Source: a bacterium
GTDB lineage: Bacteria; Electryoneota; RPQS01
Reading direction: 5' to 3'
Assembly (NCBI GenBank): GCA_018812265.1
Contig: JAHJDG010000127.1
Location: 1 to 59,470 of the forward strand
DNA: 59,470 nucleotides
The translations under genes and the position numbers were made by a program. Positions 2,981 through 53,435 of the stretch are shown in pieces (within the stretch, counting starts at the first letter, position 1; each line of letters opens with the position of its first letter). The notes beneath the pieces were generated by a model. It was not told the origin of the DNA. It was given only the letters and a program-made list of their open reading frames with translations, and did no database searches.

Positions 2981-2987
2981 CGGCCGC

Positions 2988-4034
2988 CTACAGATCCACC
3001 GACAAAGAATACCGCATCGTGTCGGTCAACGGGTGATTGGTTCCGGCCGTCAGATAGCTGAAATCGAAACGGTAGCTGCTGTACCGGAGCGAAACCCCAA
3101 AGGTATAGGGGAAGACCTTTCCGAGATCATCATTCCAGTATCCGGCGCGCAAACCCACGAGGGTCGAGTACCAATACTCGACTCCGACGTTCCAGATCAG
3201 CGACTTGACGAGGTCGCCGTCGCTCCAGGCCGTGAAGAGCGCTTCATAGAATTCATCGGAACGCCCTTTGTCGTCGCGTTTCACGAGCTCCTTGTTCACG
3301 TCGGAGGCGATAGTGAGCTGGTTGTATTCCTGATCAATGATCTTGTAGGCAAATCCCATCTTGAGATTGGTAGGCAACGGATCGGCCTGCGCCCGGTCAA
3401 TGTAGGCGACTTTCGGCCCCATGTTGGACAGGTTCGCACCCAGTGACAATCCCCTTAGGAAGGCTGCCCGATGGAGGATCCCGACGTCGGCGGCAATTGC
3501 CGTAGCCGTTCCGCTTCCCTTTTCCTCACCGGCTCCTTGATCCGATAAGTGGCTGTAGGCAAGTTTGAGTCCGACACCCATTGCAAGATGCGGATTGATT
3601 TCCGCGCCATAGGTTCCGGTCAGGGCGATTTCATAGGATGAGAAGGTGCCTTCATTGCGACCTTGTTCATCGGTGCGCTGCGTCTCGCCTAAATTGAGGA
3701 AGATGAGGTTGCCGCCGAAGGTTCCCCATTCGGGGACTTCATGCGTCGCGCTCATGTAGGCATAGTACAGATCGGACAGATTGAACTGCGGGAGCCAGCG
3801 GACGTACATCATAGTGAACTCCTGTCCATGCTGAAATCCCAAGCCAGCAGGATTCCACCAGGTTGCGCTGGCGTCGTCGGAAATGGCGACAAACGCCTCT
3901 CCCATTCCGGCCGGTCGCGCCCCGGGTGCGATTTTCAAGAACAGAAGCGTCGCCTGGCTGACGCTGGCAGCCTGCACAACGGCAGTGCACAGCAAGGCTC
4001 CCAGAATCAGCAGGCCTGTCACCGCTCGCTTCAT
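2988..4034 (-). CDS. porV: PorV/PorQ-family outer-membrane beta-barrel (T9SS shuttle-like)
   Basis: LFLKIAPGARPAGMGEAFVAISDDASATWWNPAGL N-terminal motif; signal peptide; GGAGG RBS before ATG at 4034 (the ORF track starts 10 codons early). Confidence 0.85.
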   Translation of the reverse strand: MKRAVTGLLILGALLCTAVVQAASVSQATLLFLKIAPGARPAGMGEAFVAISDDASATWWNPAGLGFQHGQEFTMMYVRWLPQFNLSDLYYAYMSATHEVPEWGTFGGNLIFLNLGETQRTDEQGRNEGTFSSYEIALTGTYGAEINPHLAMGVGLKLAYSHLSDQGAGEEKGSGTATAIAADVGILHRAAFLRGLSLGANLSNMGPKVAYIDRAQADPLPTNLKMGFAYKIIDQEYNQLTIASDVNKELVKRDDKGRSDEFYEALFTAWSDGDLVKSLIWNVGVEYWYSTLVGLRAGYWNDDLGKVFPYTFGVSLRYSSYRFDFSYLTAGTNHPLTDTMRYSLSVDL

Positions 4035-4070
4035 AGGTCCTCCAGTAGATGTATGTTCATTCACGAAAGT

Positions 4071-7000: not shown

Positions 7001-7976
7001 GATCCACGCCGACGAAATAGACGTTCTCGGTGGAGAACGGACTATGATGTGCCAGCGCGTTCAGGTACGTTTCATCACAGTAGTCCGCGCCCTTCAGTCC
7101 GCGTCCGAAAAAGAGAATGCGGTCTTCGGCGTCGAATACGCCGTCGCCGTCCACGTCTTCCATATGGATCGCGTTTTCCTTCAATTCCTCATCCACGGGA
7201 GTATCGGGCGACGTCGGAAGCAACCGGCCGCCGTTACCAAAAAGCTTGATCTTCGCCGCCGGCTGACCCACCAGACCCGCACCCGCCAAGGAAGAACCGG
7301 TAACCTGATAGATACCCGTCTCCGTCACCGCCAGACGATAGAGGGCGAAAGTAGGCCAGGAGAAGTAATCATCAAACGCTGTTTGGCGCGGATACGGCTG
7401 CCACCACGTCGAGGCAGTCAAGCCGTTCACGGCAATCGCCGACAGAATATCCCCTTCGCGTCCCACCGGCGCGGTTGACGTCGGCGTGCCCTCAAAGAGT
7501 ACGGACAGATCGGCGGACTCGAGAATCTGTGAGCGGCGAGCGTCACCAATCTGCAGAAAAACCACCACTTGGGCAAGGCGGAAGCCCTTCCACTCCTCAG
7601 TACGCTCAAGTATCGCCCAGGAGTGTCCTACCTGTTTCGCCGCATCCCCGACCAGAACGGGAGTACCCGGCAGACCGCCGTCGGTATTCCTTGTTCGAAC
7701 CGCGCCAATACGGAGATGCGGAGTGGTTCCGGGAGGCACCACGACGTAGAATGCCCGAACCGGCTGAACGAACTTCTCGGCAATCCAATAGTCCGCGTCG
7801 TCCCATCCGGTCAGGATACCGTACGGATTGACCGTATCGGGAACCTGAAATGCCGGATCGCCCGGAGCATACGTCCAAGTGCACTCACGGCTATCGGAGC
7901 GGGCAACGTGCACACCCGCGAACGTCCAAGATGTCAGAAAGACCCCCGCCAGAGTGATGGCTATTATAACTCTCAT
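4071..7976 (-). CDS. porU: PorU-like C25 (gingipain-family) T9SS sortase with FlgD-Ig-type CTD
   Basis: 1301 aa; signal peptide; FDEFGWG-RDPVAIRNFLKY and LFVGDGDYDYR; catalytic dyad NYAGHG and AATCSWG intact; C-terminus YNWPNP...WDGRDREGHLLANGVYFYKIKA; directly upstream of porV. Confidence 0.85.
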   Translation of the reverse strand: MRVIIAITLAGVFLTSWTFAGVHVARSDSRECTWTYAPGDPAFQVPDTVNPYGILTGWDDADYWIAEKFVQPVRAFYVVVPPGTTPHLRIGAVRTRNTDGGLPGTPVLVGDAAKQVGHSWAILERTEEWKGFRLAQVVVFLQIGDARRSQILESADLSVLFEGTPTSTAPVGREGDILSAIAVNGLTASTWWQPYPRQTAFDDYFSWPTFALYRLAVTETGIYQVTGSSLAGAGLVGQPAAKIKLFGNGGRLLPTSPDTPVDEELKENAIHMEDVDGDGVFDAEDRILFFGRGLKGADYCDETYLNALAHHSPFSTENVYFVGVDPMGSDGLRMPPITAAGGGTPINRTRVREYVDQDIFIRAPGDYRESGLIWFMASFGAQQERTFSLNLPGALGTAGTLRLDFDSREYVGQNFNVYVGSTLVDSAHYTTAPYSVPIPAGVLQPGANIVRMQNLTLPSSAATVYVNYVEIEFDRDLTANNGMLEFFAPRTLTGQFRYVISGLNENALILDVSNPLQPRRAIGSTLVDSSYMSVPRRYFASNPDRIRNPVFRGAKTLPDLDYSQLRDPLNGAGIILLTYDEWYDALDSLKQFHESYREEPLSAVRVRLGDVFDEFGWGVRDPVAIRNFLKYAYFNWHGSDGTDTVKYVLFVGDGDYDYRNIESSADANWMPPWESNSNSTDDFFTLFSNSSQLPWLLAGRWPSQSRAEVETAVSKTIAYATHPLYGPWKNTASFAADDENKVTCWTSGSETQHTQQAENLINDVLPEYFTFNKLYEIFYPMKHTPVGPVKPDATRDLIEAINRGTLIINYAGHGNERIWSDEQLFVMERDRNLLNNYRMWPLFLAATCSWGAFDKPLVRCFPEELLADPRDGAVACVAATRFTYIAPNNTFTIAFYSELFRQGLASRQSFGHALLVGKATRVSNVNLYHLFGDPVLRLATPEYFAQVTVADDSLRALSLFTLSGEVSRSSGGPVWSDFQGVVEVRVFDTEDSLAYYWCDNTNLPPYYVGLPGNAIFRGRATVQNGRFDSVTFRVPRDVRYGGNNAKISLYFFGKADSESDSADGIGIREHIPIAAQASSETDTIAPEIRVWLETASFRPGDLVSATPKLHVAITDASGVNLSGEVGHKITVRIDDAQTEDLTPFFNYELDSHRSGSLDKIIGPLAEGEHRLTVEAWDSFNNLNQTTLTFTVGAAGEAGYAIRDVYNWPNPMNDVTYFTYYLTQENTRRVRLRLFTLSGKLVYEMDGLGTAGPAFNSNSDRPWDGRDREGHLLANGVYFYKIKAEHAGGYSAESTGKLVILR

Positions 7977-29514: not shown

Positions 29515-31509
29515 TTAGCCGTCGGTGGTACGCAGCTCACGCAACTCCTTTTCCCTGCGTACTTCCAGTTCCTCAAGCCGAAGCGCCGCCTGCTCCCAGA
29601 GCTCGATGAGAGAGGGCAATTCCTTCCGAATCCGATCATATTCCGCCATCAGCGACCGGCACCGTTCCGGGTCCCGATAGAGACTCTCATCGGCAAGTAC
29701 GGGTTCGATCTCAAGCTTACGGGACTCGTGGCGATCAATGTTTCGTTGAATCTTCTCCAGTTCCTTGCGCGCTTGTCGGATTCCCTCGGAGTGGCGGTTT
29801 CTCACGTCCGCTTCGAGGCGCTTACGTTCCCGTTTCTGATATCGTCCATCGGGAACCGGTTGCTCGGTTGCTTCGTGGAGACGACCTTCCCCCGATTGCA
29901 GAGCGTCTCCCGCCAAACCCTTCCGCTCGAGGTACTCCGACAAGCTCCCCGGATAATCCTGCAATCGTCCACCTTCCAACTCCATAATCCGTTCCACCAA
30001 ACGGTCAAGGAAATACCGATCGTGACTGACAACGATCAGGGTTCCGTCATACTCCTTGAGGGCACTCAGCAGCACGTCCTGTGAAGTCATGTCCAGATGA
30101 TTCGTCGGCTCATCAAGAATCAGCAGATTGGCCGGACGGAGAAGCATCTTGGCCAGGGCCAACCGAGCCTTCTCGCCGCCCGACAGAACCGATACTTTCT
30201 TGAGAACGTCGTCGCCGGAAAAGAGAAACGCGCCCAGAAGCTTCCGGAGTTCATTCTGGGTCGGTCCGTGCGATTCGGATTCCATCTCCTCAAGCACGGT
30301 GCGGCGGGGATCAAGGTGGAAGTCGGCTTCCTGAGCGAAATAATTAACCTCCACGTTGTGCCCGAGCTTGACGCTGCCGCCGGTCGGTTGCTCAATACCC
30401 GTAATCAGCCGGCAGAGCGTGGACTTGCCGGCCCCGTTGACGCCGACCAGAGCGACCTTCTGACCTCGCGCAAGCACCAGGTCCAGTTCGCTGAACACCG
30501 GAATGGAACCGTAGTGGTGATGCAGGCCGATGAATTCGAGAACGATTCGGCCGCTGGGCGGCGCGGGTGGAAAACGAAACCGAACTTGGCGGGCTGAACT
30601 GCTCAGCCTGACCTGTCCGAGTTTTTCGAGGGTCTTAATCCGGCTTTGTACTTGACTGGCCTTGGTCGCCTTGTATCGGAATCGTTCGACGAATCGCTCG
30701 ATCCGCTTGCGTTCGTCCGCGATTCGAGCCGCCTCCGCCTCCAACTGCTCCTCCCGCAGCGCGCGCGCCTTCTCGTAGGCCGAGTAATTCCCCTCGTAGA
30801 GGATCAGTTCCCCGTGGTCAATCTCGGCGATACCATCCGTAACGCTGTTCAGGAAACGGCGGTCATGGCTGACGACGATCAGCGCGCCATCGTAGCGAGT
30901 CAGATAGCCTTCCAACCACAACAGGGCGGGCAAGTCAAGATGATTCGTCGGTTCGTCGAGTAGGAGGAGATCGGGATCTTGCAGAAGAAGCTTGGCCAGA
31001 GCGATGCGCATCTGCCAGCCGCCGGAAAACTCTTCCACGCGACGTCCGTGGTCGGTATCGCGAAAGCCTAATCCCTTCAGCACCCGAGCCACTTTCGCTT
31101 CCGCCCGATAGCCCTCGAGATCCTCCCACCGGTGTTGAACCACGCCCAAACGTTCGATCAAATCCACGTCATCGGGAGTCCGGTCGAGTCTTCCGTGAAG
31201 CTCGGAAAGTTCAGATTCGAGTCGCGGCAAGTCCGGAAGACCGTTCCAGGCTTCGGCGAACAGCGTTCGACCGGAGTGAGTTACTCCTTCTTGAGGAAGA
31301 TATCCGGCGGCAAGATCGCGGGTTCGCTCCACCCGGCCGTCCGTAGGCTCAGTGACACCGAGCATGATCCTGAGTAGGGTGGTTTTGCCCGCTCCATTGG
31401 GACCGATGAGTCCGAATCGTTGACGCCGGAAGATGGACCACGACAGGGGTTTCAGCAGTATCTTCCCCGGTAAAACAAGGGCGACTTCATGAAGATGCAG
31501 CAGCCTCAT
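29515..31509 (-). CDS. ABC-F family ATP-binding protein
   Basis: Two ABC domains (GPNGAGKTT, FSGGWQMR, LLDEPTNHLD; GVNGAGKST, LSGGEK), no TM segments, C-terminal coiled coil. Confidence 0.93.
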   Translation of the reverse strand: MRLLHLHEVALVLPGKILLKPLSWSIFRRQRFGLIGPNGAGKTTLLRIMLGVTEPTDGRVERTRDLAAGYLPQEGVTHSGRTLFAEAWNGLPDLPRLESELSELHGRLDRTPDDVDLIERLGVVQHRWEDLEGYRAEAKVARVLKGLGFRDTDHGRRVEEFSGGWQMRIALAKLLLQDPDLLLLDEPTNHLDLPALLWLEGYLTRYDGALIVVSHDRRFLNSVTDGIAEIDHGELILYEGNYSAYEKARALREEQLEAEAARIADERKRIERFVERFRYKATKASQVQSRIKTLEKLGQVRLSSSARQVRFRFPPAPPSGRIVLEFIGLHHHYGSIPVFSELDLVLARGQKVALVGVNGAGKSTLCRLITGIEQPTGGSVKLGHNVEVNYFAQEADFHLDPRRTVLEEMESESHGPTQNELRKLLGAFLFSGDDVLKKVSVLSGGEKARLALAKMLLRPANLLILDEPTNHLDMTSQDVLLSALKEYDGTLIVVSHDRYFLDRLVERIMELEGGRLQDYPGSLSEYLERKGLAGDALQSGEGRLHEATEQPVPDGRYQKRERKRLEADVRNRHSEGIRQARKELEKIQRNIDRHESRKLEIEPVLADESLYRDPERCRSLMAEYDRIRKELPSLIELWEQAALRLEELEVRREKELRELRTTDG

Positions 31510-33263
31510 GATCGTCTTGCCAAAGCTACCGGTCGTTTTGCCGATTGCATGCGCGTGCCGCCCTTGCCCAGCGCTTCGAGGTACACGATGTATAGACCGG
31601 TCGGAACGAATTGCCCTCCATCGTCGCGGCCATCCCAGAGTATTTCGCCGGAAAAACCCGCCGCCGCGTTGTTGGCAAGTCTTCTCACCGCACGACCGCG
31701 AACGTCGTAAATCTTGACATCAATCCGAGAATCGCCATGTTCGAGCCGAAAGCGAATGAAGAGTACGTCTTCGTGTCCGTCTCCATCGGGCGAGAACGGA
31801 TTCGGCTCCAGTACAAGGAGTTGTCGAGGCATGCCCGTGGATGGCAGAGTCCGCGAGTTCGTTCGGCCCAGAGTCGAGCCTGTGCTGTCCAGCGATGCCG
31901 CCCAATTGAGGGGATCGTTGGACGCCGAGTACGCGGAGATGCGTTCGATGCTGACTCCCGCCTCACCGTTTCCCCACGATGGCCGATAGTCCACCCGGTC
32001 CACAAGCTGATGATGGGAGTCGAACAACACCAGTGAATCGCCGCTGTTGTTCAAGGTCACTTCGCCGGAATTCCAGATCATTACCGGCACGGTCGGCGGA
32101 ATGTTCTCGAACAACACTTGCGAATCGGCGGCCAACACGATGAATTGCATCGGCGGCAGTACAATCTCCGGCAGGAGCTGCAACCGCGACGTATCGAGCA
32201 GCGCCGTTCCGTCGCCGAACCGCCAACCTGCGAGATTCCACGACAGTACGCTCGCATTGTAGAGCTCGATCCACTCGCTCCGTTGGGACTCGGGCTGATA
32301 CATGATCTCGTTGATAACCAGCCAACTCTGAGCACCGGATGTACCGATGGCAATTGCCCACTCATCATTGCTGTGGCGATCATCCCGCCCGGACAGTTTC
32401 GCCACAAACGTGTGAATGGATTCATCAGGCAATGTCCAGTCGCGGCGAAACTCCTCCGAGTCACCGGGAGACAGAATCGCCGTAAGCCACCGATTCAGCA
32501 CGTGGAGCGAGTCCGTTGTTCCACTGGGCTCTATCCGTTCGTAGAGAAATAAGGAATCTCGCATCGGTTGGAGTCCGACGTTTTCCACTCGCACGGTAAT
32601 CTCGATTGTCTCCCCCACGCGCGCGTCAACAGGTGCGTAGGTCAGGGATGTAATCGCCAAGTCTTGTTCGGGAGGCGTTACGCTGTTTCGCCCTCCCGGA
32701 GTTCCCCCCAGAGTCACGGCTTCCGTCCAGTTGGAGCTGCCGTCTCCGGCAGTCGGCAGAATCTTTTCCTCTGATTGACCTTGCTCATTACCGAGAGTGT
32801 AGGTGTACGAAGAGACCGTCTGTCCTTGCGGACTGATCAGCGACACCGTCTCGGCCGTGCTGTTGGATAGACCACGGCTGCCAAACGTCGAGTTGTCTAT
32901 GGTAACGACGAGCGCGTTCTCCGGAATGCGACCGTCATAGGTCGTGCTTCCATTCTCGAAATAGTCCGGGTCGAGAATGAGAACGTACCGATTGGACTGC
33001 ACGAGAAGACCGTGCTCGAGGGCGATAACTCGATCCGTATCCGCTCCATCAGTTACCCGCCATCCGTCCAAGTTCACTGCATGGGGGCTATTATTGAAGA
33101 GCTCGATGTACTCATCATCGTTCTCATCGCCGCTCGGATTGTACATGATCTCATTCAGCGTCAGCCCCGGCGCCTCACTGGATAGCAATAGAAAACCGAT
33201 GATCACAGAGATCGCAATACTACGCAAGTGATATATCCTCGATGTGACGGACTTTCGGTTCAT
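31506..33263 (-). CDS. Exported protein with two lamin-tail domains, a CARDB-like Ig domain and a T9SS-type CTD
   Basis: Signal peptide; LNEIMYNP..EYIELFN and INEIMYQP..EWIELYN; DLAITSL...TITVRVENVG; PNPFSPDGDGHED...WDGRDDGG..VPTGLYIV. Confidence 0.8.
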   Translation of the reverse strand: MNRKSVTSRIYHLRSIAISVIIGFLLLSSEAPGLTLNEIMYNPSGDENDDEYIELFNNSPHAVNLDGWRVTDGADTDRVIALEHGLLVQSNRYVLILDPDYFENGSTTYDGRIPENALVVTIDNSTFGSRGLSNSTAETVSLISPQGQTVSSYTYTLGNEQGQSEEKILPTAGDGSSNWTEAVTLGGTPGGRNSVTPPEQDLAITSLTYAPVDARVGETIEITVRVENVGLQPMRDSLFLYERIEPSGTTDSLHVLNRWLTAILSPGDSEEFRRDWTLPDESIHTFVAKLSGRDDRHSNDEWAIAIGTSGAQSWLVINEIMYQPESQRSEWIELYNASVLSWNLAGWRFGDGTALLDTSRLQLLPEIVLPPMQFIVLAADSQVLFENIPPTVPVMIWNSGEVTLNNSGDSLVLFDSHHQLVDRVDYRPSWGNGEAGVSIERISAYSASNDPLNWAASLDSTGSTLGRTNSRTLPSTGMPRQLLVLEPNPFSPDGDGHEDVLFIRFRLEHGDSRIDVKIYDVRGRAVRRLANNAAAGFSGEILWDGRDDGGQFVPTGLYIVYLEALGKGGTRMQSAKRPVALARRS

Positions 33264-37459: not shown

Positions 37460-38272
37460 TCAAGCCGCAGTTGCCGCGAGGTAGGCGAGGAAAAGGGGAG
37501 CGGAAATCAATAGGGAATCGAAACGATCGAGAAGTCCGCCGTGACCGGGCAAGATTGCCGACGTGTCTTTGAGGCTGGACTCTCTTTTCATGAGAGATTC
37601 GAGTAGATCACCCGCCTGTCCTCCCAAACCGACGATGATCGGAAGCATGACGTAGTCCAGAGGCAAGGGAGAAACCCAGCCCAAACCAGCCAGGGCGGGC
37701 AGAATCAGCGAAGACCCGACAAAACCGCCCACAAATCCCTCCACCGTCTTATTCGGGCTTGCCTGAGTGAACAGCGGACGCCTTCCCGCATATCGGCCCA
37801 CGAAGTAGGCGGCGGAATCACACATCCATGTCGCTACGAAAAGAATCACCAGAGCACCGGCCGGCTCCAGACGGACGAACCGGTTCACCGTGGCGAGGGG
37901 AATCCAGAACGCAAGGGGCAAAGCTATATAGAAGACATAGAGAGCCACGCCACTCAGGACGGCGAGGGGACGTCGCTTTGAAAAAAACAACCCCGCAATA
38001 AGCAGAATCCCCAGCACCGCTGCTGCGACGATCGTTGCCAGTTTGGAATCAGGAGCGATCAACAGAAAATCAACGGCGAGCGCCGCCAGAATCATGGCGG
38101 GCACAAGTGAGCGAATGCCGTCGGATCGCCACAGACGCAGCCACTCGGGCAGAATAGCGAGTTGCAGCGCCAGCACCAGCGCCACGACGTACCATTTGCC
38201 CAATCGAGCCACCGCCAGCAGAAGGGGGATGCCGACCGCGGCAATCAGGACTCGTTTGGCCAGATTACGCAC
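37460..38272 (-). CDS. cdsA: Phosphatidate cytidylyltransferase
   Basis: DSAAYFVG, SPNKTVEGF, GDLLES..KR...KD...LPGHGGLLDRFDS; GTG overlaps the upstream TAG. Confidence 0.92.
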   Translation of the reverse strand: MRNLAKRVLIAAVGIPLLLAVARLGKWYVVALVLALQLAILPEWLRLWRSDGIRSLVPAMILAALAVDFLLIAPDSKLATIVAAAVLGILLIAGLFFSKRRPLAVLSGVALYVFYIALPLAFWIPLATVNRFVRLEPAGALVILFVATWMCDSAAYFVGRYAGRRPLFTQASPNKTVEGFVGGFVGSSLILPALAGLGWVSPLPLDYVMLPIIVGLGGQAGDLLESLMKRESSLKDTSAILPGHGGLLDRFDSLLISAPLFLAYLAATAA

Positions 38273-40494
38273 TAATGGAATCGGCGTCCTCTGAGGGATT
38301 CTTCGGAGGGAGGCCAACCGGTTTCATCGGGCTCCTCTTCGAGAAGGTCTTCAACCGGCGCGCGTGAACCCAAGAGCTGCGCATCGGTGAGAAGAAAGCA
38401 CGAAACCGAATCCGGTGGACCAAGTTTGCGCCGCAGCCGTTCGGCGAAAGACGAGTCGGGAAACAGCGCCAGCAGGCGGGTATAAATGACACGCGCGGAG
38501 TCGAAACGAGCAAATTCCTCCTCGTAGATATGCGCCTTGGCGAAAAGAGCCGTTTGTCCGGCGGTCGAAGTGGAATCGGTGGCGATAACCGCCGAGTACA
38601 GCTTCAAAACCGAATCCAACGGTGCTTCACTTTGAAAACGCGCGTACTCCGCCGCCTGGAGAGCCTCGACTTGCGGCGAAACCGGAATCACGATAAGGGG
38701 CAGACCCAATGCCTGCCGCGCGACATTGGCGGCGTCAGCGGAAACGCTATCGTCATCTACCACCGCCTGATAGTATTGCCGCGCTCGTTCGCTTATACCG
38801 CTGTCCTGCTCTGCACAGTAACTCGCGAGGTACAGATTTGCCTTCCAGCGAACTCGAGAATCAAAGGGAAAGTCGGCGGCAAGCCGGTAATAGTGCATCG
38901 CACTGTCCGGCTCTATCAGATTGTATTGATAGAACTCGGCCACGTGAAGGTATGCCAACTGAAGTTCTCTAAGGAGAGTCTCGCGGCGATCTTCACTGAG
39001 CGGAATCGGCGGCGAGGGTTGACCAACGGAGGGCGGTAATCCGACCTCTTCGCCGAGTTCAGAGGATTCCTCCGTCGAATCGGTTTCCGTACTGTCAGAT
39101 GCCGCGCGCGCCGGCTGAATCGAATCGGGAACCGCCGTAGTCGTACTCCTCGGCTCCCCTGCCAAAGCGCTGTCGGCGGGCAAATCCGGTTCACCAAAGT
39201 GCAGGGATTCTCCGGTTTGAACGGAATCCAACGTACGGACTTCATCTTGTTCCGTCGGGATTTCCCCCGTCGGCTCCACGGGCGCTTCGGGTTGCGTTGA
39301 GTCTGCGGAAGTGGAGTCCCCCGACGGGGGCGCTTCCAATTCGGCGCGAATCTCGCTAATGCGTTCAATTGCCAACAGACCCTTCGAGATCAGCGCCAGC
39401 GCCGCGCGAGCCGAATCGGCGATTTCCGCCGCTGCTCCCGATTTGATGGTGCTGTCGAGGTGCGCCTTCGCTTCGGGCAAATTGGCAAGATGATCGCGAT
39501 AGACCATCGCCATGCGGAAATGCGCCAATGCCCGCTGCTCACCGGTCGGATGCCGACGAACGTAGTCCGTGTAAAGTGCGATGGATTCGTCTATCCGCCC
39601 CGATTGAAGAGTCAAGTCGGCCAACTCAAGAGGGATGTCATCCGCGTGACTCAGAAATCGCGGGTTAGCCGACAGCTTTCTCAAGATCGTTCCGGCCTGC
39701 TCGTAATTCTGGATCCTCATCTCCGCGCGCGCCCAATAGACGAACGCGTTGTAAGCCTGCTCCCAATCCGTGGTTTGCTGAGTGACGCGGACGAAGGCAT
39801 CCCGCGCCTCTTCATAGCGCCGTTGCGAGAATCTGCATAATCCGTAGTGATACATCGCATTCATCGCCTCGGCTCTGGGAGGACGCAACTGATACGCGGC
39901 ATTGAACTGCTCCGCAGCGTCGTCCCACCGCTTCTGGTCCCGATAGAGAACACCCAACTGATAATGGAGAGCGGCGAGATCCGTATCGCGCTTGGCTTTG
40001 GGCAGACCATTCACGAGCAGTTCGATCGCTTGATCACGATTGGTCTGCTCCGCGAGCGTGCGCGCCCGGAAGAGAATCGCGGAGGGAATGTGCTTGCTCT
40101 TCGGGAACAGCGTCGTTAGCTCAGTGAACTTCCGGTCCGCCCGACCGAGTTCACCCAACCGATAGTACGAAACGCCCATCAGATACAACGCATCATCCAC
40201 CCAGCGACTCTTCGGATAGAGTTCGAGGAGCTTCGCACAGGTCTCGAGCACTTTGCGATATTTCTCTGGCGACCGTACATCCCGTTGAACACCGGCGCCT
40301 TGCGGATTTGCCGGAGTCCGTGGCGGAGACGGTTGTTGCGTCTGTGCTGGTTGCGGTTGATTGCGGTTGTCCCGTTCCGCCTCCGCAAACTTCCGCTTGG
40401 CATTATAGAACGTGTTGTAGTAGGCACAGCCCGCCGTGAGCAGCGCCAGACCCATGACCGCCAACAGGAGGAGAGGTAGAATCCGTCGTCTCAT
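38272..40494 (-). CDS. TPR-repeat lipoprotein with an acidic Pro/Ser-rich linker
   Basis: Lipobox LTAG|C followed by AYYNTFYNA; TPR helices (YPKSRWVDDALYLMG, FPKSKHIPSA); low-complexity linker at ~39001-39335. Confidence 0.8.
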   Translation of the reverse strand: MRRRILPLLLLAVMGLALLTAGCAYYNTFYNAKRKFAEAERDNRNQPQPAQTQQPSPPRTPANPQGAGVQRDVRSPEKYRKVLETCAKLLELYPKSRWVDDALYLMGVSYYRLGELGRADRKFTELTTLFPKSKHIPSAILFRARTLAEQTNRDQAIELLVNGLPKAKRDTDLAALHYQLGVLYRDQKRWDDAAEQFNAAYQLRPPRAEAMNAMYHYGLCRFSQRRYEEARDAFVRVTQQTTDWEQAYNAFVYWARAEMRIQNYEQAGTILRKLSANPRFLSHADDIPLELADLTLQSGRIDESIALYTDYVRRHPTGEQRALAHFRMAMVYRDHLANLPEAKAHLDSTIKSGAAAEIADSARAALALISKGLLAIERISEIRAELEAPPSGDSTSADSTQPEAPVEPTGEIPTEQDEVRTLDSVQTGESLHFGEPDLPADSALAGEPRSTTTAVPDSIQPARAASDSTETDSTEESSELGEEVGLPPSVGQPSPPIPLSEDRRETLLRELQLAYLHVAEFYQYNLIEPDSAMHYYRLAADFPFDSRVRWKANLYLASYCAEQDSGISERARQYYQAVVDDDSVSADAANVARQALGLPLIVIPVSPQVEALQAAEYARFQSEAPLDSVLKLYSAVIATDSTSTAGQTALFAKAHIYEEEFARFDSARVIYTRLLALFPDSSFAERLRRKLGPPDSVSCFLLTDAQLLGSRAPVEDLLEEEPDETGWPPSEESLRGRRFH

Positions 40495-41258
40495 TGTGCT
40501 ACGCTTCCGGAAGATGAATCCCGACGTCCGCGTTCGAATATTTCCACAAGTTCCGGCAGGATCGTGCCGGCAGGTCCCAACAGATGGTAGGTCACCGAAC
40601 CGCTGAGCGGAGTTTCCTCCATATTTACCTCTATGACGGGGATCCCCCGTGATAGAGCGATTTCGGGCAGAGACGCCGCCGGGTAGACCACTGCCGAGGT
40701 TCCGATCGTCAAGAAGAGATCGCAGCGCTGAGAGGCTTCAGCCGCAGCCTCAAAGACTCCCGGCGGAAGCATCTCGCCAAACCAGACCACCCCCGGCCTG
40801 AGCATCCCTCCACAGGGGCACATAGGGACTTTCCCGGCAAAGGTGATCTCTTCCATCGAGCTTTCGGATCCGCAGCGATTGCATCTATTAATTCTAATAT
40901 TACCATGAAGTTCAAGAACGTTTCGACTCCCCGCCATGAGATGAAGTCCGTCCACGTTCTGGGTCACTAAAGTAAATTTCGGAGCGAGTTCCTCCCACCT
41001 CGCGAGCGCCATATGGCCGGGATTGGGCTTGACGGTTGTGAGGATATCCCGGCGGTGCTGATACCATTCCCAAACTAAGTCAGGATTAGCCATGAAAGCG
41101 TCCATGTTGGCCAGCTCCTGTGGCTTAAACTTCGACCACAGCCCTTCCTTTCCCCGAAAGGTGGCCACACCGGATTCGGCTGAGATTCCGGCACCCGTTA
41201 GGACACATATATGTGAAGCATTTTTAATGTCTTGCACGAGCCGAGTGCCGATTTCCAT
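40491..41258 (-). CDS. cobB: NAD-dependent protein deacylase (class III sirtuin)
   Basis: TGAGISAESGVATFRG, TQNVDGLH, zinc-binding Cys pairs, RPGVVWFGE, IGTSAVVYPAA; start 41258 or GTG 41273. Confidence 0.93.
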   Translation of the reverse strand: MEIGTRLVQDIKNASHICVLTGAGISAESGVATFRGKEGLWSKFKPQELANMDAFMANPDLVWEWYQHRRDILTTVKPNPGHMALARWEELAPKFTLVTQNVDGLHLMAGSRNVLELHGNIRINRCNRCGSESSMEEITFAGKVPMCPCGGMLRPGVVWFGEMLPPGVFEAAAEASQRCDLFLTIGTSAVVYPAASLPEIALSRGIPVIEVNMEETPLSGSVTYHLLGPAGTILPELVEIFERGRRDSSSGSVAQ

Positions 41259-41273
41259 GCGAGGTTTTCCCAC

Positions 41274-41748: not shown

Positions 41749-43221
41749 TCAGCGCGGCCGCTCGTAATTGGGAGCTTCCCGCGTGATAATCACGTCATGG
41801 GGATGGCTCTCACGATAACCGGCTGACGAGGCTTGAACAAGCCGCGCGTTCCGGTGCAACTCTGCGATGTCGCGAGCCCCGCAATACCCCATCGCCGCTC
41901 GCAATCCCCCCACGAGTTGGAACACCGTGTCCGCCAGCTTCCCCTTGTAGGGGACGCGGCCTTCGATTCCCTCGGGAACAAACTTGCCACTGGCATCGGC
42001 CGCCGACTGGAAATAACGGTCGGCGCTGCCTTGCTTCATGGCTCCCACCGAACCCATTCCCCGGAACTGCTTGTAGCTGCGGCCCTCCAGAAGAATCATC
42101 TCGCCCGGACTCTCCTCCGTACCCGCGAAGAGGCTGCCGATCATCACCGAATCCGCTCCGGCGGCAATGGCCTTGGCGATGTCGCCCGAATAGCGAATCC
42201 CGCCATCGGCAACGGCCGGAATGCCTCGCTCGCGGGTCGCGCGAATCACCTCAAGAATCGCCGTGACCTGCGGCATTCCCACTCCCGCCACGACCCGGGT
42301 GGTGCAGATCGAACCCGGTCCCACGCCGATTTTCACCGCATCCGCTCCCGCCTTGACAAGTGCCTCCGCCCCATCGGCCGTTACGACGTTGCCGGCGATG
42401 AGGTCCGGGGCCGGGAACTCCGCCCGCAGTCGTTCCACCATGCGGATGACGTTGACGGAGTGTCCGTGAGCCGTATCCACGACCAGAGCGTCCACTCCGG
42501 CTTCCACGAGCGCATGGGCACGATCCATTGTGTCCTCTCGCACTCCCACGGCCGCCGCCGCGCGAAGCCGGCCCTCTTCGTCCTTGCAGGCATTGGGAAA
42601 CAGTGATCGCTTCAGAATGTCCTTGGCCGTGACCAGTCCCGCCAGTCGTCCCTGACCATCTACCAGCAGCAATTTCTCGATCCGATGCTTCTGCAGGATC
42701 CTTTTGGCCGTGTCCAGGTCGGTCCCGAGTGGCGCGGTAATCAAACGATCTCGCGGAGTCATGATGTCGCGCAAGGGCCGAGCATAGTCTTCCTCGAAAC
42801 GCAGGTCGCGGTCGGTCACGATTCCATGCAGTTCTTCGCCGCTGACGACCGGGATCCCGCTGATTCCCTTGTCACGCATTAATTTCAGAGCGTCTCCCAC
42901 TCGGGCATTGGGAGGCAACGTATGCGGCTTGAGAATCGTTGCCGATTCACTCCGCTTGACTCGCGTGACCTCGGCCGCTTGCGCTTCCACCGACATGTTC
43001 TTGTGGACAACACCGATACCGCCTTCGCGGGCCAGCGCAATACACAGAGCCGCCTCGCTGACCGTATCCATGGCCGCCGAAACGAGCGGAATGTTGAGAG
43101 CGATTCGACGGCTGAAGCGAGTGCGAACAATGGCCTGCGAGGGGATCACTTCGGAATAGGCCGGGAGCAGCAGAACGTCGTCAAAGGTGATCCCGAGACA
43201 TTCGATTTTTTCGTGAGCCAA
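41749..43221 (-). CDS. guaB: IMP dehydrogenase
   Basis: [19 protein letters not shown] pair, [28 protein letters not shown]; TTG start. Confidence 0.97.
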
Positions 43222-43254: not shown

Positions 43255-45828
43255 TCAGCCGGCCATGAACGTCGAATAGAAATACTGGAAATAGGTGAGC
43301 GTCCCTAAGCGGTTCTCGAGAACCGCCAGAGCAATCGCGGTCAGCGCACCCGCCAATACCATCACCACCGCGTATACCCGCAATCGAGTCGTCCCGAATC
43401 CCTCGCAGAGTGTGCTCATCAGCCGCAATCCTCCCCACACGATGCCTGCGACAACCGCAATCAAGACGGCGGTCGAGATCGTGGGAATCTGCACGGCTCG
43501 ATGGAAGACCACCGATACCGGAAGCAGGAACAACACGGCTGCGAACGACCAGACGACGTAGTTCCACGCCTGCCGGGTGTCTACGCGGCTCCGCAGAATG
43601 GCGGATACAAACCGAATCAGCATCGCCTTGAGTACGATGAGGAGCGCGAAAAGCACCGAACAATACAAGAGCAACCGAACGGGATCGAGTATGAGTTCAA
43701 TCACCCAAGCCTTGATATGAGCACCCGTCAAAAAGTGAGTGAGAGCATAGTCGAGCGCAAGGTTATCCTTCAAACTGTATAAACCCGCAGCCATCAGGAG
43801 ACCCAGGGATACCGATTCGAGCGCCCACAAGAGCAGCGGCTGTCCGGGGTGCAGGAACCGGCGATGTCGCAGGTCGCTGCAGAATCCGTGCGCATGCAGG
43901 AAGGTGCGCTTGAGATTCTGTCGGAATACGTTATTGCGGCGCAATTCGATGGACAGCGCAAAGATCGCGATGAGTCCGGCCACCGGAAACACCAATGGCG
44001 GAGCGGTTGTTGAACTGATCGGTACCGGAGGAGATGCCTGCCCCGTCCGAACGAGATCCCGGAGCTTGGCATAGGCAAGACGTTCCTGACGATTCCAATC
44101 CACCAATCCGAAAGCGTAGAGATGGGGATCGTCGGCGGCCGGTTGACCGAGAAGCGGACTGCTTCCGTAATAATCACTCAGCGAGTGAATCAGGAAACCG
44201 TCCACGTCGGTCCGGTCTTCAACTGCGAGCACGCTGCGGGTCAGGAACTCCGCTTGATTCACGATGCCGGCGAAAGCCCGTTCGTCCGCACCTTCACTCC
44301 AAGCCGAACGTCGAATGCCGGAGAAGATCACCGGGACAACCGTCGTGGTCAGATCGTTCAACCGATTGCTCTGCGAATCCCACGCCATCAGGATGAAATC
44401 CGCAGGAATCGAACCCGCATTCGCGTTCCGGAGTTCCACGTAGCAGGGCCGTTCGTCAAGCTGTTTCACGTGCTGTCTGAGCCATCCCGCGAAATCCGCC
44501 GTCGCCGGATTTTTCCAATCCAATCCCGTTCCCAAACCCCAGGCCAGAACACAGGGATGCTGTTGAAAGGCTTCGATCTCCTGCGTGACGGCCTGCCCGA
44601 CCAGCGCTCGATAGCTCGCTTGCTCCAGCAGCTTTCCCGGAATCCTGTCCACTCCGGTCTCCACAAGAACGGAAAGCCCCAGCTCGTCGGCAAGATCGAG
44701 CAGTAGCGGCGGCGGAGGATCGGAAGGAACTCGGATCACGTTCATTCCCAGATCACGAATCGAAATCAGATCCTGCCGCAGCCGAGTCGGCGACACGACC
44801 CGCCGTCCGATAGCGTATTCCGGAACGAAATCCACGCCGCGCACATAGAAAGGCTGTCCGTTGAGAAACAACGCGCCCTCGCGCACCTCCACCGTGCGGA
44901 AACCGAACGTCCGCTCAAACCGGTGAAGCGTATCGGAACCTGCGATTAGCGTCGCGGCAAGGGTATAAAGATGCGGCTGTGCCGGCGACCACAGATTCGC
45001 ATGGAAAGGCGGCAGGGTGATGACGGCTTGATAGTCGTTCGCGCGACCCTGTCTCAAGACATCGTTTCGCCCCGATGCAACCGCTTGCCCCATCGAATCG
45101 TACACACTCACAAGAACGAGAACATCGGACTTGCGGCCACTGCTGTCGAGAGTGGTTTTCATCGGTCCATACTGTGCAATCCGTACTTGCGCCGTGCCGC
45201 TGATGACCGACAATTCGCTATTGGATTCCCTCATGAAGCGAGCGTCTTCAATGGACCACGAAGGCACTCCCCGAAGGTAAACGCCCGAGAAGCATCCTCC
45301 ATAGTCCTGCGACTGCAGAAGCTGTCGCCGCACCGGAAACGTCCCTTTGGGCGTCAAATGATGCGTAATCCGCAGCTCGATTTCATTGGTTGTGCCGAAT
45401 CGAAGCTGATCGGAGGCCAGGTCACAGACGAATCCAAGATGAAATCCGGTGAGCGAAGCCACCAGCCGACCGTTGATGCGAACCTCACAGGAATGGCTGA
45501 TTTCCGGCAAGTGAAGCTGGAAATGTAGCGGGCGGAGTGAATCGGCAAGATAGAACGAACGCCGAAAAACCACCGGAGCGGCATCGCCTTCGAAACACCC
45601 CGGAATGAACGCCGATTGCGACTCGTCCTGCTCTCCGCGCTGCAATTCCCACGTGCCGCGCAGATCCAGCACCACTTGATGCGGATTCTCCTGAAGACGG
45701 GGAGTCGGCGGAGCCATCGCTTCCCGCTGATCGTAATACACGAAACCCTCGGCCGGGCGCACGAATACCACCAGCACGAGGGTCAGCAATGTGAGAAACG
45801 GAAAATGAACCTGATTGCGCACACTCAT
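43255..45828 (-). CDS. GH2-fold protein lacking the catalytic glutamates, with about six C-terminal TM helices
   Basis: Signal peptide; GH2 sugar-binding/Ig/TIM architecture (LWSPAQPHLY, FGFRTVEV, LNGQPFYVRG, DELGLSVLVE, HPCVLAWGLG, GLVDWNRQERLAY); hydrophobic C-terminal segments. Confidence 0.8.
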   Translation of the reverse strand: MSVRNQVHFPFLTLLTLVLVVFVRPAEGFVYYDQREAMAPPTPRLQENPHQVVLDLRGTWELQRGEQDESQSAFIPGCFEGDAAPVVFRRSFYLADSLRPLHFQLHLPEISHSCEVRINGRLVASLTGFHLGFVCDLASDQLRFGTTNEIELRITHHLTPKGTFPVRRQLLQSQDYGGCFSGVYLRGVPSWSIEDARFMRESNSELSVISGTAQVRIAQYGPMKTTLDSSGRKSDVLVLVSVYDSMGQAVASGRNDVLRQGRANDYQAVITLPPFHANLWSPAQPHLYTLAATLIAGSDTLHRFERTFGFRTVEVREGALFLNGQPFYVRGVDFVPEYAIGRRVVSPTRLRQDLISIRDLGMNVIRVPSDPPPPLLLDLADELGLSVLVETGVDRIPGKLLEQASYRALVGQAVTQEIEAFQQHPCVLAWGLGTGLDWKNPATADFAGWLRQHVKQLDERPCYVELRNANAGSIPADFILMAWDSQSNRLNDLTTTVVPVIFSGIRRSAWSEGADERAFAGIVNQAEFLTRSVLAVEDRTDVDGFLIHSLSDYYGSSPLLGQPAADDPHLYAFGLVDWNRQERLAYAKLRDLVRTGQASPPVPISSTTAPPLVFPVAGLIAIFALSIELRRNNVFRQNLKRTFLHAHGFCSDLRHRRFLHPGQPLLLWALESVSLGLLMAAGLYSLKDNLALDYALTHFLTGAHIKAWVIELILDPVRLLLYCSVLFALLIVLKAMLIRFVSAILRSRVDTRQAWNYVVWSFAAVLFLLPVSVVFHRAVQIPTISTAVLIAVVAGIVWGGLRLMSTLCEGFGTTRLRVYAVVMVLAGALTAIALAVLENRLGTLTYFQYFYSTFMAG

Positions 45829-51039: not shown

Positions 51040-51735
51040 TCAACCTTTGCGCCGCGCGGCCATCACCTTCCTGGCCATTTCCACCACATGCTCGACCTGA
51101 TCCCCGATCGTGAGATGTGTCGTGTCAAGCTCGATGGCATCTTGCGCCTTGCGAAGAGGACTGTGCGCGCGCGTTGAATCCCGATCATCGCGAGTCCGAA
51201 TGGCGGATTCAACCTCGTCAAGGCTCTGCTCGATGCCACGACCAAGCATCTCCTTGCGTCGCCGCTTCGCGCGCGTCTTGACGTCCGCGACCAAGAATAT
51301 CTTCACGTCGGCGTCGGGAAAAACCACCGTGCCGATGTCCCGGCCGTCCAACACGATCCCGCCCGACTTGCCGAGTTCGCGTTGCCATCCGACGAGGTGC
51401 TCGCGAACGCTCGGATCTTCCGACACCGGACCCACCCACAGCGATACTTCGGGCGAACGGATCTCATCGGTCACGTCTTCATCGTCGAGAAGGATTCTTG
51501 TTTGTGACCGATCTTCCTTCTGGCTGACCGTCGTCGCACGCAGAAGGGCAGCCACTTTGCCCGCGTCGGTCAATTCGATTCCGCAACGGAGCATCTTGAG
51601 AGCGACGGCACGATACATCGCACCCGTATCCACGTGCATGTATCCGAGCCGTTGAGCGACCAACTTGGCGGTCGAGGATTTCCCGCTGCTGGCCGGGCCG
51701 TCTATGGCGATCACTAATCCGGACGACCGACTCAC
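51040..51735 (-). CDS. cmk: Cytidylate kinase
   Basis: IAIDGPASSGKSS, DTGAMYR, DGRDIGTVVFPDA, RDDRD. Confidence 0.96.
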   Translation of the reverse strand: MSRSSGLVIAIDGPASSGKSSTAKLVAQRLGYMHVDTGAMYRAVALKMLRCGIELTDAGKVAALLRATTVSQKEDRSQTRILLDDEDVTDEIRSPEVSLWVGPVSEDPSVREHLVGWQRELGKSGGIVLDGRDIGTVVFPDADVKIFLVADVKTRAKRRRKEMLGRGIEQSLDEVESAIRTRDDRDSTRAHSPLRKAQDAIELDTTHLTIGDQVEHVVEMARKVMAARRKG

Positions 51736-53435
51736 GATTTGATTCGACCACCCTTCTCTTCTTCGATGAAGATGTGCGTGACGATCTTTCCGGCAAAGAA
51801 CTCTTCTCCCTCACCCAACATGCACCGTTCCCACGGAAAGGCGGACGAAGTGTCTTCCGCCGCTTCGCCCGTGGTAGCCGCGTAGAAGTCGGCGATGCGC
51901 TGCTGCCACTTCTTCATGTTGGACGGTCGCAGATCCAGCCAGCCCTTGTCCGCCCATTCATCTATGCAGCCGTCCCACATCGGAATTTCATTGCTGCCGG
52001 AGTAGGCCGGGATTTTCACTTCCGGGCCACGCAGAATGCTCTTGCCGTCGGGAAGAAGAATGGGAACGCCGATCGAGATTATCGTGGCCCGCAGCTTCGA
52101 ATCCTTCCGGAGAATGCTCCAAAGCTCTTCGGAGACGACCTCCGGTCTGATGTTCACCGACGACGACGGATCCGGATACGCCCGTTTGATCAGGTGCGCC
52201 TCATAAAGCAGTTTGGAAAGGTGCGGCGGGCCGAGCATTTCAAACGCGACACTCGAAATCCCGTGTTCATGCTCGAGACGTTGCATCTCTCCCAAGGCTG
52301 CGCCCCGCAGAATGGCGGCTCGATACGACGGCCCCATCGCGACCGCGTCCAACGCTCCCACGACGTCGAAACCGCTGTTGCCGCCCTCGATTTCCCACAA
52401 CACGGCATCGGCGATTTCCTCGGGAGTTACGAACTCCATTTGCTGTGCCGCCGTGATCGTGAAAAACTCCCCGGCCGAGAAGATTCCGTTTTCTCCCGTG
52501 TCAATAAACACCGATTTCAGATTATCTCCCGTTGATTCGCCGCTGTCGGGGTGATTCCTTACGAACGTTCCGCCCAGAAGCTCGGGCTTCTCGGGACTGC
52601 AATCGTAGAGCGGAATGGGACGGCCGCCCCGAAGCACTTCGCCGTACGCGATTCTCTTCCAGGCGATTGCCGCCGCCGGTTTGACCTCCTTGACGTACGG
52701 ACAACCCGGTGTGCGCGCCATCAGAAACAGCAACATGGTATGCGCGCCGGCCATGGAAGATTTGGCGAGGAGTTGCGCCGACGGCTTTTCTTCGGAATGT
52801 GTGTACGGAATATTGAAACCCATGCCGCCGGTGCCGGTCGTCCCCACTTTAATGTACGTGTGAACCCCCGTCTGACTGGACGATTCCGCCAAGACCTGAA
52901 TGTGGCGGATCAGCTGCGGGACATAGACCGTTCCGCAAAAACGCTCCATCCGGTCAAGGATAGAATCGTCCACCGGAGTCCGCTTGGCGTGCATTTCGAA
53001 GATACTCTTCACGTCGTAGTACGCCGAATAGATGTCCTGATAGGCGAATCCCGTTGCGGCATTCACGCAATCCACGATAACGTCGGGACGGTGCTCCGCA
53101 ATAAGACGATGCAGGAAGAACACCTTCAGCCGTTCGGGCGTCAGCTTCTCGAAAACGTCTTCGATGAATTGCCGTCGAAGCTGCGGTTTGCTCATAACTT
53201 CGCGACGAGGAATGTCTTTGAAATCCTCGCGTACGAAGATGTCTCCCCACGCCGGGGTCATGGTGACCTTGGGAAACTCGGCTTCGAGCTCGCGGACCGC
53301 CTCCTCGGCCTCCGACTGTCGAAGCGAAAGCACGATAATCTTCGACGGCCCGCGCGAAAGAATTCGACGACAGACCGCCATGCCAACAAGCCCCCACCCG
53401 CCCAGCACCATCACGGTTGAATTTCTCAGCATCAT
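51732..53435 (-). CDS. Uncharacterised 567-aa protein with an N-terminal NAD(P)-binding Rossmann (atypical SDR-like) domain
   Basis: VLGGWGLVG (GxxGxxG), PDVIVDCVNAA, KVGTTGTGG; overlaps the scpB stop and the cmk start. Confidence 0.7.
   Translation of the reverse strand: MMLRNSTVMVLGGWGLVGMAVCRRILSRGPSKIIVLSLRQSEAEEAVRELEAEFPKVTMTPAWGDIFVREDFKDIPRREVMSKPQLRRQFIEDVFEKLTPERLKVFFLHRLIAEHRPDVIVDCVNAATGFAYQDIYSAYYDVKSIFEMHAKRTPVDDSILDRMERFCGTVYVPQLIRHIQVLAESSSQTGVHTYIKVGTTGTGGMGFNIPYTHSEEKPSAQLLAKSSMAGAHTMLLFLMARTPGCPYVKEVKPAAAIAWKRIAYGEVLRGGRPIPLYDCSPEKPELLGGTFVRNHPDSGESTGDNLKSVFIDTGENGIFSAGEFFTITAAQQMEFVTPEEIADAVLWEIEGGNSGFDVVGALDAVAMGPSYRAAILRGAALGEMQRLEHEHGISSVAFEMLGPPHLSKLLYEAHLIKRAYPDPSSSVNIRPEVVSEELWSILRKDSKLRATIISIGVPILLPDGKSILRGPEVKIPAYSGSNEIPMWDGCIDEWADKGWLDLRPSNMKKWQQRIADFYAATTGEAAEDTSSAFPWERCMLGEGEEFFAGKIVTHIFIEEEKGGRIKS

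Follow-up and report, generated by a model that had tools for sequence, protein, structure and literature searches.

Bacteroidota-type O-glycosylation sequons are concentrated in a PorW/SprE-like lipoprotein and other exported proteins of an apparently KSB1-like bacterium

The window analyzed here, the whole 59,470-nucleotide (nt) stretch of contig JAHJDG010000127.1 (assembly GCA_018812265.1), carries about 42 credible genes, all on the minus strand, among them one for a tetratricopeptide repeat (TPR) lipoprotein resembling PorW/SprE, a type IX secretion system (T9SS) component (Table 1). This lipoprotein is the protein of the window most heavily loaded with the motif D-[ST]-[AILVMT], the sequon of general O-glycosylation in Bacteroidota. 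It contains exactly 15 sequons, every one of them D-S, at residues 347, 360, 393, 398, 423, 441, 457, 467, 472, 530, 582, 627, 640, 665, and 695, and all of them lie within positions 38272 to 39470, the 3' portion of the gene (residues 342 to 740). A sequence-only reading of this DNA had counted 15 motifs by hand, had listed seven tetrapeptides in the linker (GDST, ADST, LDSV, ADSA, PDSI, SDST, and TDST), and had assigned all motifs to the C-terminal half. The count and the seven tetrapeptides are correct; the placement holds for all sites but 347 and 360, which fall just N-terminal of the midpoint.

The protein begins with a lipoprotein signal peptide (MRRRILPLLLLAVMGLALLTAGC), whose Cys23 is invariant in 40 orthologues, as expected of the PorW/SprE lipobox; the YYNTFYNA that follows is invariant or nearly so. 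Pfam recognizes TPR_6, TPR_2, and YfiO-type repeats in residues 77 to 335. An AlphaFold2 (AF2) model built on the alignment of the 40 orthologues (mean predicted local distance difference test score [pLDDT], 81.8) contains about eight TPR pairs, a helix at 356 to 387, disorder at 392 to 494, a helix at 501 to 526, and then a further helical domain. Only two sequons, 347 and 360, lie in the TPR scaffold (residues 76 to 387), and those of the C-terminal domain are placed, in the model, at helix N termini and in interhelix loops. None of the plus-strand open reading frames (ORFs) overlapping this region has a family match, and a gene caller trained on codon usage rejected them.

Table 1. Features of the window, with the evidence for each
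Feature	Position	Strand	Basis or remarks
PorW/SprE-like TPR outer membrane lipoprotein, 740 aa	38272..40494	-	NF052312; SprE (8gl8_I) profile and Foldseek matches
Signal peptide and lipobox, residues 1-23, LTAGC (Cys23)	40426..40494	-	Direct reading of translation
N-terminal TPR scaffold, residues 76-387, ~8 helix pairs	39334..40269	-	Pfam TPR_6/TPR_2/YfiO; AF2 pLDDT >90; aligns to SprE 118-439
Predicted disordered Pro/Ser/Thr-rich loop (linker), residues 388-500, seven sequons	38995..39333	-	pLDDT <50 at 392-494; putative counterpart of SprE Finger Region
C-terminal helical domain, residues 501-740, six sequons	38275..38994	-	Helix positions from AF2 model
T9SS-dependent M6-like inactivated metalloprotease, cargo with C-terminal sorting domain	2..~2980	-	NF052323, 399 bits (cutoff 600); Por_Secre_tail
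PorV outer membrane beta-barrel	2988..4064	-	NF033709, 285 bits; 1 sequon, no excess
PorU T9SS sortase	4071..7976	-	NF033707, 654 bits; Peptidase_C25
T9SS attachment-complex operon (PorU, PorV, M6-like cargo)	2..7976	-	
Lamin-tail-domain T9SS cargo	31506..33263	-	4 sequons vs 2.5 expected; clade orthologues 24 vs 9.2
Sir2-family deacetylase	40491..41273	-	
IMPDH	41749..43221	-	
Signal-peptide GH2-like protein fused to DUF4271 membrane domain	43255..45828	-	3 sequons vs 2.1 expected; clade orthologues 24 vs 11.8
567-aa protein	51732..53435	-	Weak Rossmann/KR-like N terminus

The excess of sequons is confirmed as real and lies far beyond chance. Shuffling of the lipoprotein gave 2.3 ± 1.5 sequons compared to the 15 observed, a number not attained once in 20,000 shuffles (P about 2e-8). 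Judged against its own composition, the linker alone has 7 sequons compared to 0.76 expected, and residues 500 to 740 have 6 compared to 0.75; the N-terminal scaffold up to residue 340 has none. Fifteen of the 18 D-S-x tripeptides in the protein carry an allowed third residue, against a background of 0.385 (binomial P = 1.3e-4). Tandem duplication was ruled out as the source of the linker sites: the linker lacks a tandem repeat, so its sites are independent and not products of recent duplication. The chance frequency, estimated earlier at 2 to 3 per 1,000 residues, was computed as 2.4 to 3.5 per 1,000, in agreement with that estimate.

The excess is not confined to the lipoprotein, and it follows the cellular compartment. 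The proteins of the window were assigned to classes from domain content and N termini, independently of motif counts. The exported and outer membrane proteins (n = 10) together hold 54 sequons compared to 23.7 expected (2.27-fold), a number reached in 0 of 1,000 shuffles, and without the lipoprotein (n = 9) they hold 39 compared to 21.4 (1.82-fold). Counts were 7 compared to 3.9 (1.8-fold) in six multipass inner membrane proteins and 21 compared to 25.0 (0.84-fold) in 27 cytoplasmic proteins. The exported share of the sequons is significant in a conditional binomial test (P = 3.5e-5; 2.5e-3 without the lipoprotein). Five control motifs, namely, E[ST]h, N[ST]h, the reversed motif, D[ST] followed by a nonallowed residue, and D[AG]h, where h is an allowed third residue, are not enriched in the exported proteins (ratios of 0.76 to 0.98 in shuffles; 0.91 for E[ST]h and 0.79 for D[ST]non-h). 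Hand counts of about 14, 9, and 3 for the M6-like protein, PorU, and SMC proved exact; the corresponding expectations are 4.1, 4.6 (P = 0.044, marginal when PorU is taken alone), and, for the cytoplasmic SMC, 2.9. The M6-like protein extends at its C terminus past the left edge of the window and is missing from the ORF list because its frame leaves the window there. A single motif is present in each of the two beta-barrels (PorV and a TonB-dependent receptor), which show no excess.

The same contrast is found in related genomes. One scan of species-representative genomes with a profile of the lipoprotein family returned 80 loci, mostly from metagenome-assembled genomes (MAGs), with the labels KSB1, Zixibacteria, Calditrichota, Latescibacteria, Ignavibacteria, Cloacimonadota, and WOR-3. 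Genes were called with the codon-usage-trained caller and a conservative signal-peptide rule, a procedure that reproduces the manual annotation of the window, and all PorW-like homologues were taken out before counting. The 89 signal-peptide proteins contain 169 sequons compared to 84.3 expected (2.0-fold; P = 3e-16), multipass membrane proteins contain 137 compared to 74.9, and cytoplasmic proteins contain 406 compared to 387 (1.05-fold), while for the control motifs, the signal-peptide proteins have flat or reduced counts. Counts exceed expectation in 76% of the signal-peptide proteins versus 39% of the cytoplasmic ones (Mann-Whitney P = 9e-14), and removal of the ten largest contributors leaves 110 compared to 63.1 (1.74-fold). 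The comparison of signal-peptide with cytoplasmic proteins against shuffles, which the sequence-only reading had called for on the scale of the proteome, yields an excess in the envelope proteins only, in the window as well as in the loci. When the third residue is considered separately, the ratios in signal-peptide proteins are 2.9 for L, 2.3 for T, 2.0 for V, 1.6 for I and for M, and 1.3 for A and for S, and the residues G, N, D, Y, and W are depleted; cytoplasmic proteins of these loci do not have this profile. The experimentally derived order in the Bacteroidota sequon is L, I, V, T, A, S, M (PMC12871550), and the profile found here matches these published preferences.

By lineage, sequons were counted at 129 compared to 57.2 expected in the envelope classes of the window's own syntenic clade, 35 compared to 15.2 in KSB1-labeled loci, 48 compared to 22.7 in signal-peptide proteins of Zixibacteria-labeled loci, and 16 compared to 5.0 in WOR-3-labeled loci. 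The small sample labeled Latescibacteria (L036, L051, L055, L056, and L076) has 5 in the envelope classes compared to 11.6, no excess, and this may be a lineage with a weak general signal. The PorW-like homologues of Latescibacteria are still sequon rich in at least two loci (L051, 7 compared to 1.3; L055, 9 compared to 1.5). In 200 kb of Escherichia coli K-12, the same pipeline gave flat results for signal-peptide (12 compared to 10.4), single-transmembrane (TM) (23 compared to 21.9), and cytoplasmic (78 compared to 84.7) proteins. A separate observation concerns the reversed motif, [AILVMT]-[ST]-D, which is overrepresented in cytoplasmic proteins of the window (42 compared to 25.1 by shuffling) and of the loci of the Fibrobacteres-Chlorobi-Bacteroidetes (FCB) group (492 compared to 387) and shows no excess in E. 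coli cytoplasmic proteins (90 compared to 84.7) or in exported proteins.

Sequons of the lipoprotein are conserved among its relatives. In an alignment of 40 full-length relatives with 22 to 58% identity, sites 347, 360, 423, 441, 457, 530, and 640 are kept in 26 to 36 of the 40 and sites 582 and 627 in 20 to 22, and the C-terminal-domain sites 530, 582, 627, 640, and 665 are conserved in 17 to 36. D530-S531 is invariant, and at site 695, D-[ST] is present in 34 of 40 and the full sequon in 11 of 40. Changes at the third residue all stay within the allowed set (DST, DSA, or DSV at 347; DSV, DST, DTT, DSM, DSL, or DSI at 423). All members of the family are loaded, with a total of 596 sequons compared to 100.2 expected. 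Identity to the window protein averages 18% in the linker and 43% in the TPR part, and yet each of the 40 linkers has at least two sequons, with a total of 264 compared to 37.7 expected from their own composition (7-fold). Sequon density is thus kept while the linker sequence turns over, as would be expected if the motif itself is selected. The M6-like family (46 orthologues) has 441 sequons compared to 170 expected, with conserved columns at 304, 341, 510, and 555 and turnover at the remaining sites.

Our best reading of the lipoprotein is that it is the PorW/SprE homologue of the host. Among NCBIfam families, NF052312 (PorW/SprE, a periplasmic lipoprotein of the T9SS; E = 2.5e-34) gives the best match, one whose score of 119 bits does not reach the curated equivalog cutoff of 250 bits and which is confined to the N-terminal half (residues 24 to 351 with model positions 25 to 356 of 716). 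When the PDB was searched with a profile of the 40 orthologues, SprE of Flavobacterium johnsoniae (8gl8 chain I) was the sole natural long colinear match; profile positions 96 to 404 align to SprE residues 118 to 439, and the SprE Finger Region begins just after, at 445 to 550. The top PDB match in Foldseek was the same chain, from the T9SS Extended Translocon (E = 7.9e-10; template modeling scores of 0.46/0.53). As in PorW/SprE, the modeled TPR scaffold is broken by a disordered loop between long helices. PorU, PorV, and three proteins with C-terminal sorting domains (CTDs) are encoded in the same window; SprA/Sov, PorKLMN, SkpA, and PorD were not seen in it.

SprE consists of 13 TPR units, the ninth of which is broken by the 160-residue Finger Region, where about 100 unresolved residues lie between two helical fingers that point across the pore of SprA; in F. 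johnsoniae, PorD is bound by the disordered part, which secretion does not require (PMC10994853). Glycans on SprE have been seen by cryo-electron microscopy, and mutation of eight glycosylated residues lowers SprE stability (PMC10994853). In Porphyromonas gingivalis, PorW and PorE have the most found or predicted O-glycosylation sites among outer membrane-associated proteins, and glycosylation is biased against outer membrane beta-barrel proteins (PMC8729774). In the model, the sequon-rich linker corresponds to the Finger Region. The sequence-only reading had described it as a mucin-like glyco-spacer. That description fits in part, since the linker is predicted to be disordered, consists of 41% Pro, Ser, and Thr, and has 7 of its 29 Ser/Thr residues in sequons; it does not fit the lack of repeats or the position of the linker. 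By analogy with SprE, this position suggests that the linker is likely an interaction loop rather than a passive spacer.

Judging from submitter labels, we place the nearest labeled relatives of the host, with moderate confidence, in KSB1 and Calditrichota, outside the Bacteroidota. KSB1 (proposed Zhuqueibacterota) is a monophyletic FCB phylum apart from the Bacteroidota (PMC11683472). The gene order S1-MiaB-M20-GH2/DUF4271-IMPDH-Sir2-PorW-CdsA-UbiE-ComEC is common to L001 to L008, L019, and L021, and a locus titled candidate division KSB1 (L004) has 76 to 80% identity to the window in S1 and IMPDH together with full synteny. The best named matches of the M6-like protein are from Calditrichota (55%) and KSB1 (52%). 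Six loci titled "uncultured Alphaproteobacteria bacterium" (L001, L002, L003, L005, L006, and L008) have a PorW-like gene, the gene order of the window, and 67 to 81% identity in IMPDH. This content is at odds with their title, as are PorU and PorV in the window, whose closest syntenic relatives bear it. The third-party annotation (TPA) titles Alphaproteobacteria, Ignavibacteria, and Cytophagia are evidently unreliable, and the Alphaproteobacteria ones look like placeholders. Biofilm and groundwater metagenomes contain the contig.

Several neighboring genes deserve mention. The Sir2-family gene lies immediately upstream of the PorW-like gene, with a 4-base overlap, and the two are adjacent in KSB1 and Calditrichota loci (L001 to L010, L017, L018, L048, and L060); in a Zixibacteria locus (L045), one gene stands between them. 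One relative (P0009; 1,018 residues) has a Sir2 domain (PF02146) together with TPR families and may be a Sir2/PorW-like fusion. Farther upstream, beyond Sir2 and IMPDH, lies the GH2/DUF4271 gene, whose GH2-like part is of the beta-galactosidase/glucuronidase type and whose C-terminal DUF4271 is multi-TM; this arrangement is syntenic in L001, L004, L005, L007, and L008. The 567-residue protein has no family match beyond its N terminus, is 62% identical to a protein in L019, and adjoins cmk and scpB. Almost all 2-kb bins show negative GC skew, which, together with the restriction of genes to one strand, fits a long codirectional stretch on one replichore. A tRNA scan found no tRNA genes in the window.

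Taking these results together, we consider it probable that the motifs are selected acceptor sites for Bacteroidota-type general O-glycosylation in a T9SS-bearing, KSB1-like FCB bacterium. The enrichment, its specificity for compartment and motif, its conservation, and the homology to SprE are seen in the sequences; that glycans are attached, and by which machinery, is our inference. Sec-exported lipoproteins, periplasmic proteins, and T9SS cargo prior to its second step of export would meet an inner membrane oligosaccharyltransferase, and this enzyme would transfer a preassembled lipid-linked glycan, on the periplasmic side, to a Ser or Thr with Asp before it and a small or hydrophobic residue after it. 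Cytoplasmic proteins, on this proposal, would never encounter the enzyme, and the motif would for that reason drift in them at chance frequency. The homologue of PorW/SprE, the lipoprotein that hangs under the T9SS translocon, would be the substrate with the heaviest load. If it resembles SprE of F. johnsoniae in this respect, glycosylation would stabilize it and protect its exposed loop. The earlier suggestion that a Bacteroidota-type or ancestral system acts here is partly and indirectly supported: it agrees with the tests of compartment, motif (Asp and not Glu or Asn, Ser/Thr, and orientation), third residue, and conservation and with the homology of the most loaded protein to one shown by experiment to be O-glycosylated in Flavobacterium and Porphyromonas.

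Several points weigh against this interpretation. The search for an oligosaccharyltransferase and a glycan locus, which had been proposed as a check, applied Pfam and NCBIfam to the approximately 42 window genes, to the conserved neighbors in KSB1 loci, and to all large multi-TM proteins of the 80 loci, covering the 59-kb window and about 20 kb per relative. It found no oligosaccharyltransferase, glycosyltransferase cluster, wzx flippase, YfhO-like gene, or PglL/Wzy_C-like gene there; the multi-TM and neighbor matches were only to proteins such as ComEC, GH2-DUF4271, a cyclase, and transporters of the OPT and SNF types. The signal-peptide calls are heuristic, and the taxon labels of MAGs are unreliable. 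The sensitivity of the pipeline on true Bacteroidota DNA is unproven: signal-peptide proteins of the Spirosoma linguale plasmid pSLIN01 (Bacteroidota; 150 kb of accessory content, with metal resistance genes, TonB receptors, and conjugation genes) had 19 sequons compared to 16.6 (1.14-fold), and five loci labeled Bacteroidota or Ignavibacteriales had 4 compared to 3.8 in only five such proteins. The PorW-like homologues in these five loci carry as heavy a load as elsewhere. Finally, the cytoplasmic IMPDH of the window has 6 motifs compared to 1.3 expected (P = 0.002). Five of the six are D-T-x, and clade relatives carry 3 to 6. Motifs intrinsic to the family were rejected as the cause, only one of the six (DTV) being common to E. 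coli GuaB, and we have no explanation other than that IMPDH is an outlier among the 27 cytoplasmic proteins of the window.

Other explanations of the motifs must be weighed against selected acceptor sites of the Bacteroidota type. It is very improbable that chance, combined with an observer's choice of the most loaded proteins, has turned a few outliers into a trend. PorU is marginal, the lamin-tail-domain (LTD), GWxTD, and HtrA proteins are individually nonsignificant, and IMPDH shows that a cytoplasmic protein can have six motifs; however, the definition of the class tests did not depend on the counts, and their significance survives removal of the lipoprotein, the result was replicated in the signal-peptide proteins of other loci even when the top ten contributors were removed, and individual sites are conserved across orthologues. 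A structural origin is more plausible than chance, although still unlikely. In this case, the motifs would be by-products of helix N caps, of DxDxDG calcium loops in FG-GAP or beta-propeller folds, or of acidic, Ser-rich composition. Sites 360, 530, 627, and 665 do lie in the first turn of predicted helices, where D-S could serve as a cap, and this too counts against a role in glycosylation; relatives with as little as 22% identity keep the invariant D530-S531, a DLDGDS loop of the M6-like protein contains site 544, and TPR_6/YfiO repeats often have P-x-S at the helix start (PKSR and PKSK in the N-terminal half of the lipoprotein). Yet that same N-terminal scaffold, for all its helices up to residue 340, has no sequons, and composition is already accounted for in the linker excess, both in the window protein and in the orthologues. 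Also against this origin are the limitation of the third position to the sequon set, the excess in unrelated signal-peptide proteins with none in cytoplasmic proteins or E. coli, and the flat counts of reversed and E- or N-substituted motifs in exported proteins.

The sites could also be genuine and be served by an unrelated, convergent enzyme of the PglL/Wzy_C or PMT type. We regard this as unlikely too, if by a small step less so than a structural origin. The Bacteroidota transferase against which homology would be judged has itself not been identified, YfhO being a prediction and absent from P. gingivalis, and the nearest labeled relatives of the host lie outside the Bacteroidota. On the other hand, the preference profile over three positions coincides with that of Bacteroidota, the PorW/SprE family is loaded in both groups, and shared ancestry is the simpler account of a signal found in several T9SS-bearing FCB phyla. 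A further possibility, to which we give tentatively slightly less than even weight, is that sequon-directed O-glycosylation is an ancestral trait of T9SS-bearing FCB bacteria (KSB1, Zixibacteria, WOR-3, and relatives) that was passed down along with PorW/SprE, and not an invention of the Bacteroidota.

If the sequon is indeed under selection in KSB1-like, Zixibacteria, and WOR-3 genomes, the system would be older and wider than the Bacteroidota and would appear to travel with the T9SS, and this added depth of phylogeny could help to narrow the set of candidates for the machinery. Were the trait ancestral, the comparison of enriched lineages with nonenriched ones, possibly Latescibacteria, would offer a phylogenetic-profiling handle on the oligosaccharyltransferase, including the YfhO prediction. 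A previously unnamed "TPR protein" of this clade can be annotated, as our best reading, as the T9SS component PorW/SprE, with candidate modified residues predicted. In the literature, we found no report of the sequon outside the Bacteroidota, in other FCB, Ignavibacteria, Zixibacteria, Calditrichaeota, KSB1, or related phyla, and our results probably extend a known system to a new lineage.

The candidate system can be compared with known ones at three levels. The linker shares with mucin-type Pro/Ser/Thr domains its richness in these residues, its predicted disorder, and multiple candidate O-glycosites. It differs in that mucin domains have tandem repeats, in that only its seven Asp-preceded Ser residues would be acceptors among its 29 Ser/Thr residues, and in that it is an internal loop within a TPR scaffold and not a stalk or spacer. 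With SprE of F. johnsoniae (8gl8_I) and PorW of P. gingivalis (PGN_1877), the protein as a whole has only about 12% identity in structural alignment; SprE has 870 residues compared to 740 here, and NF052312 covers only the N-terminal half below its cutoff. All are nevertheless lipoproteins with a TPR scaffold and a C-terminal domain after the loop. In SprE as in the window protein, a disordered insertion of about 100 residues separates two long helices close to repeat eight or nine. Multisite O-glycosylation is proven or predicted for SprE and PorW, as it is predicted here, and the genes for PorU, PorV, and CTD cargo co-occur with the lipoprotein.

O-glycosylation in Bacteroidota is essential in Bacteroides and modifies hundreds of envelope proteins. 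The sequon, the confinement of the system to non-cytoplasmic proteins, and the logic of its biosynthesis are established, while its oligosaccharyltransferase, core flippase, and ligase are undiscovered; the transferase has eluded identification for more than 15 years, and a 2026 preprint predicts YfhO for this role, yet YfhO is absent from P. gingivalis. The system indicated here differs in its host phylum, in the LFG-type locus (metG-wzx-glycosyltransferases), which is present there and was not found in the DNA examined here, and in glycan attachment, which is proven there and predicted here from the sequons. The two are alike in the three-residue sequon, in its restriction to non-cytoplasmic proteins, in the order of preference at the third residue, and in that Glu does not substitute for Asp, which is seen here at the level of enrichment. 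In both, beta-barrels are spared, and periplasmic lipoproteins and T9SS components are loaded.

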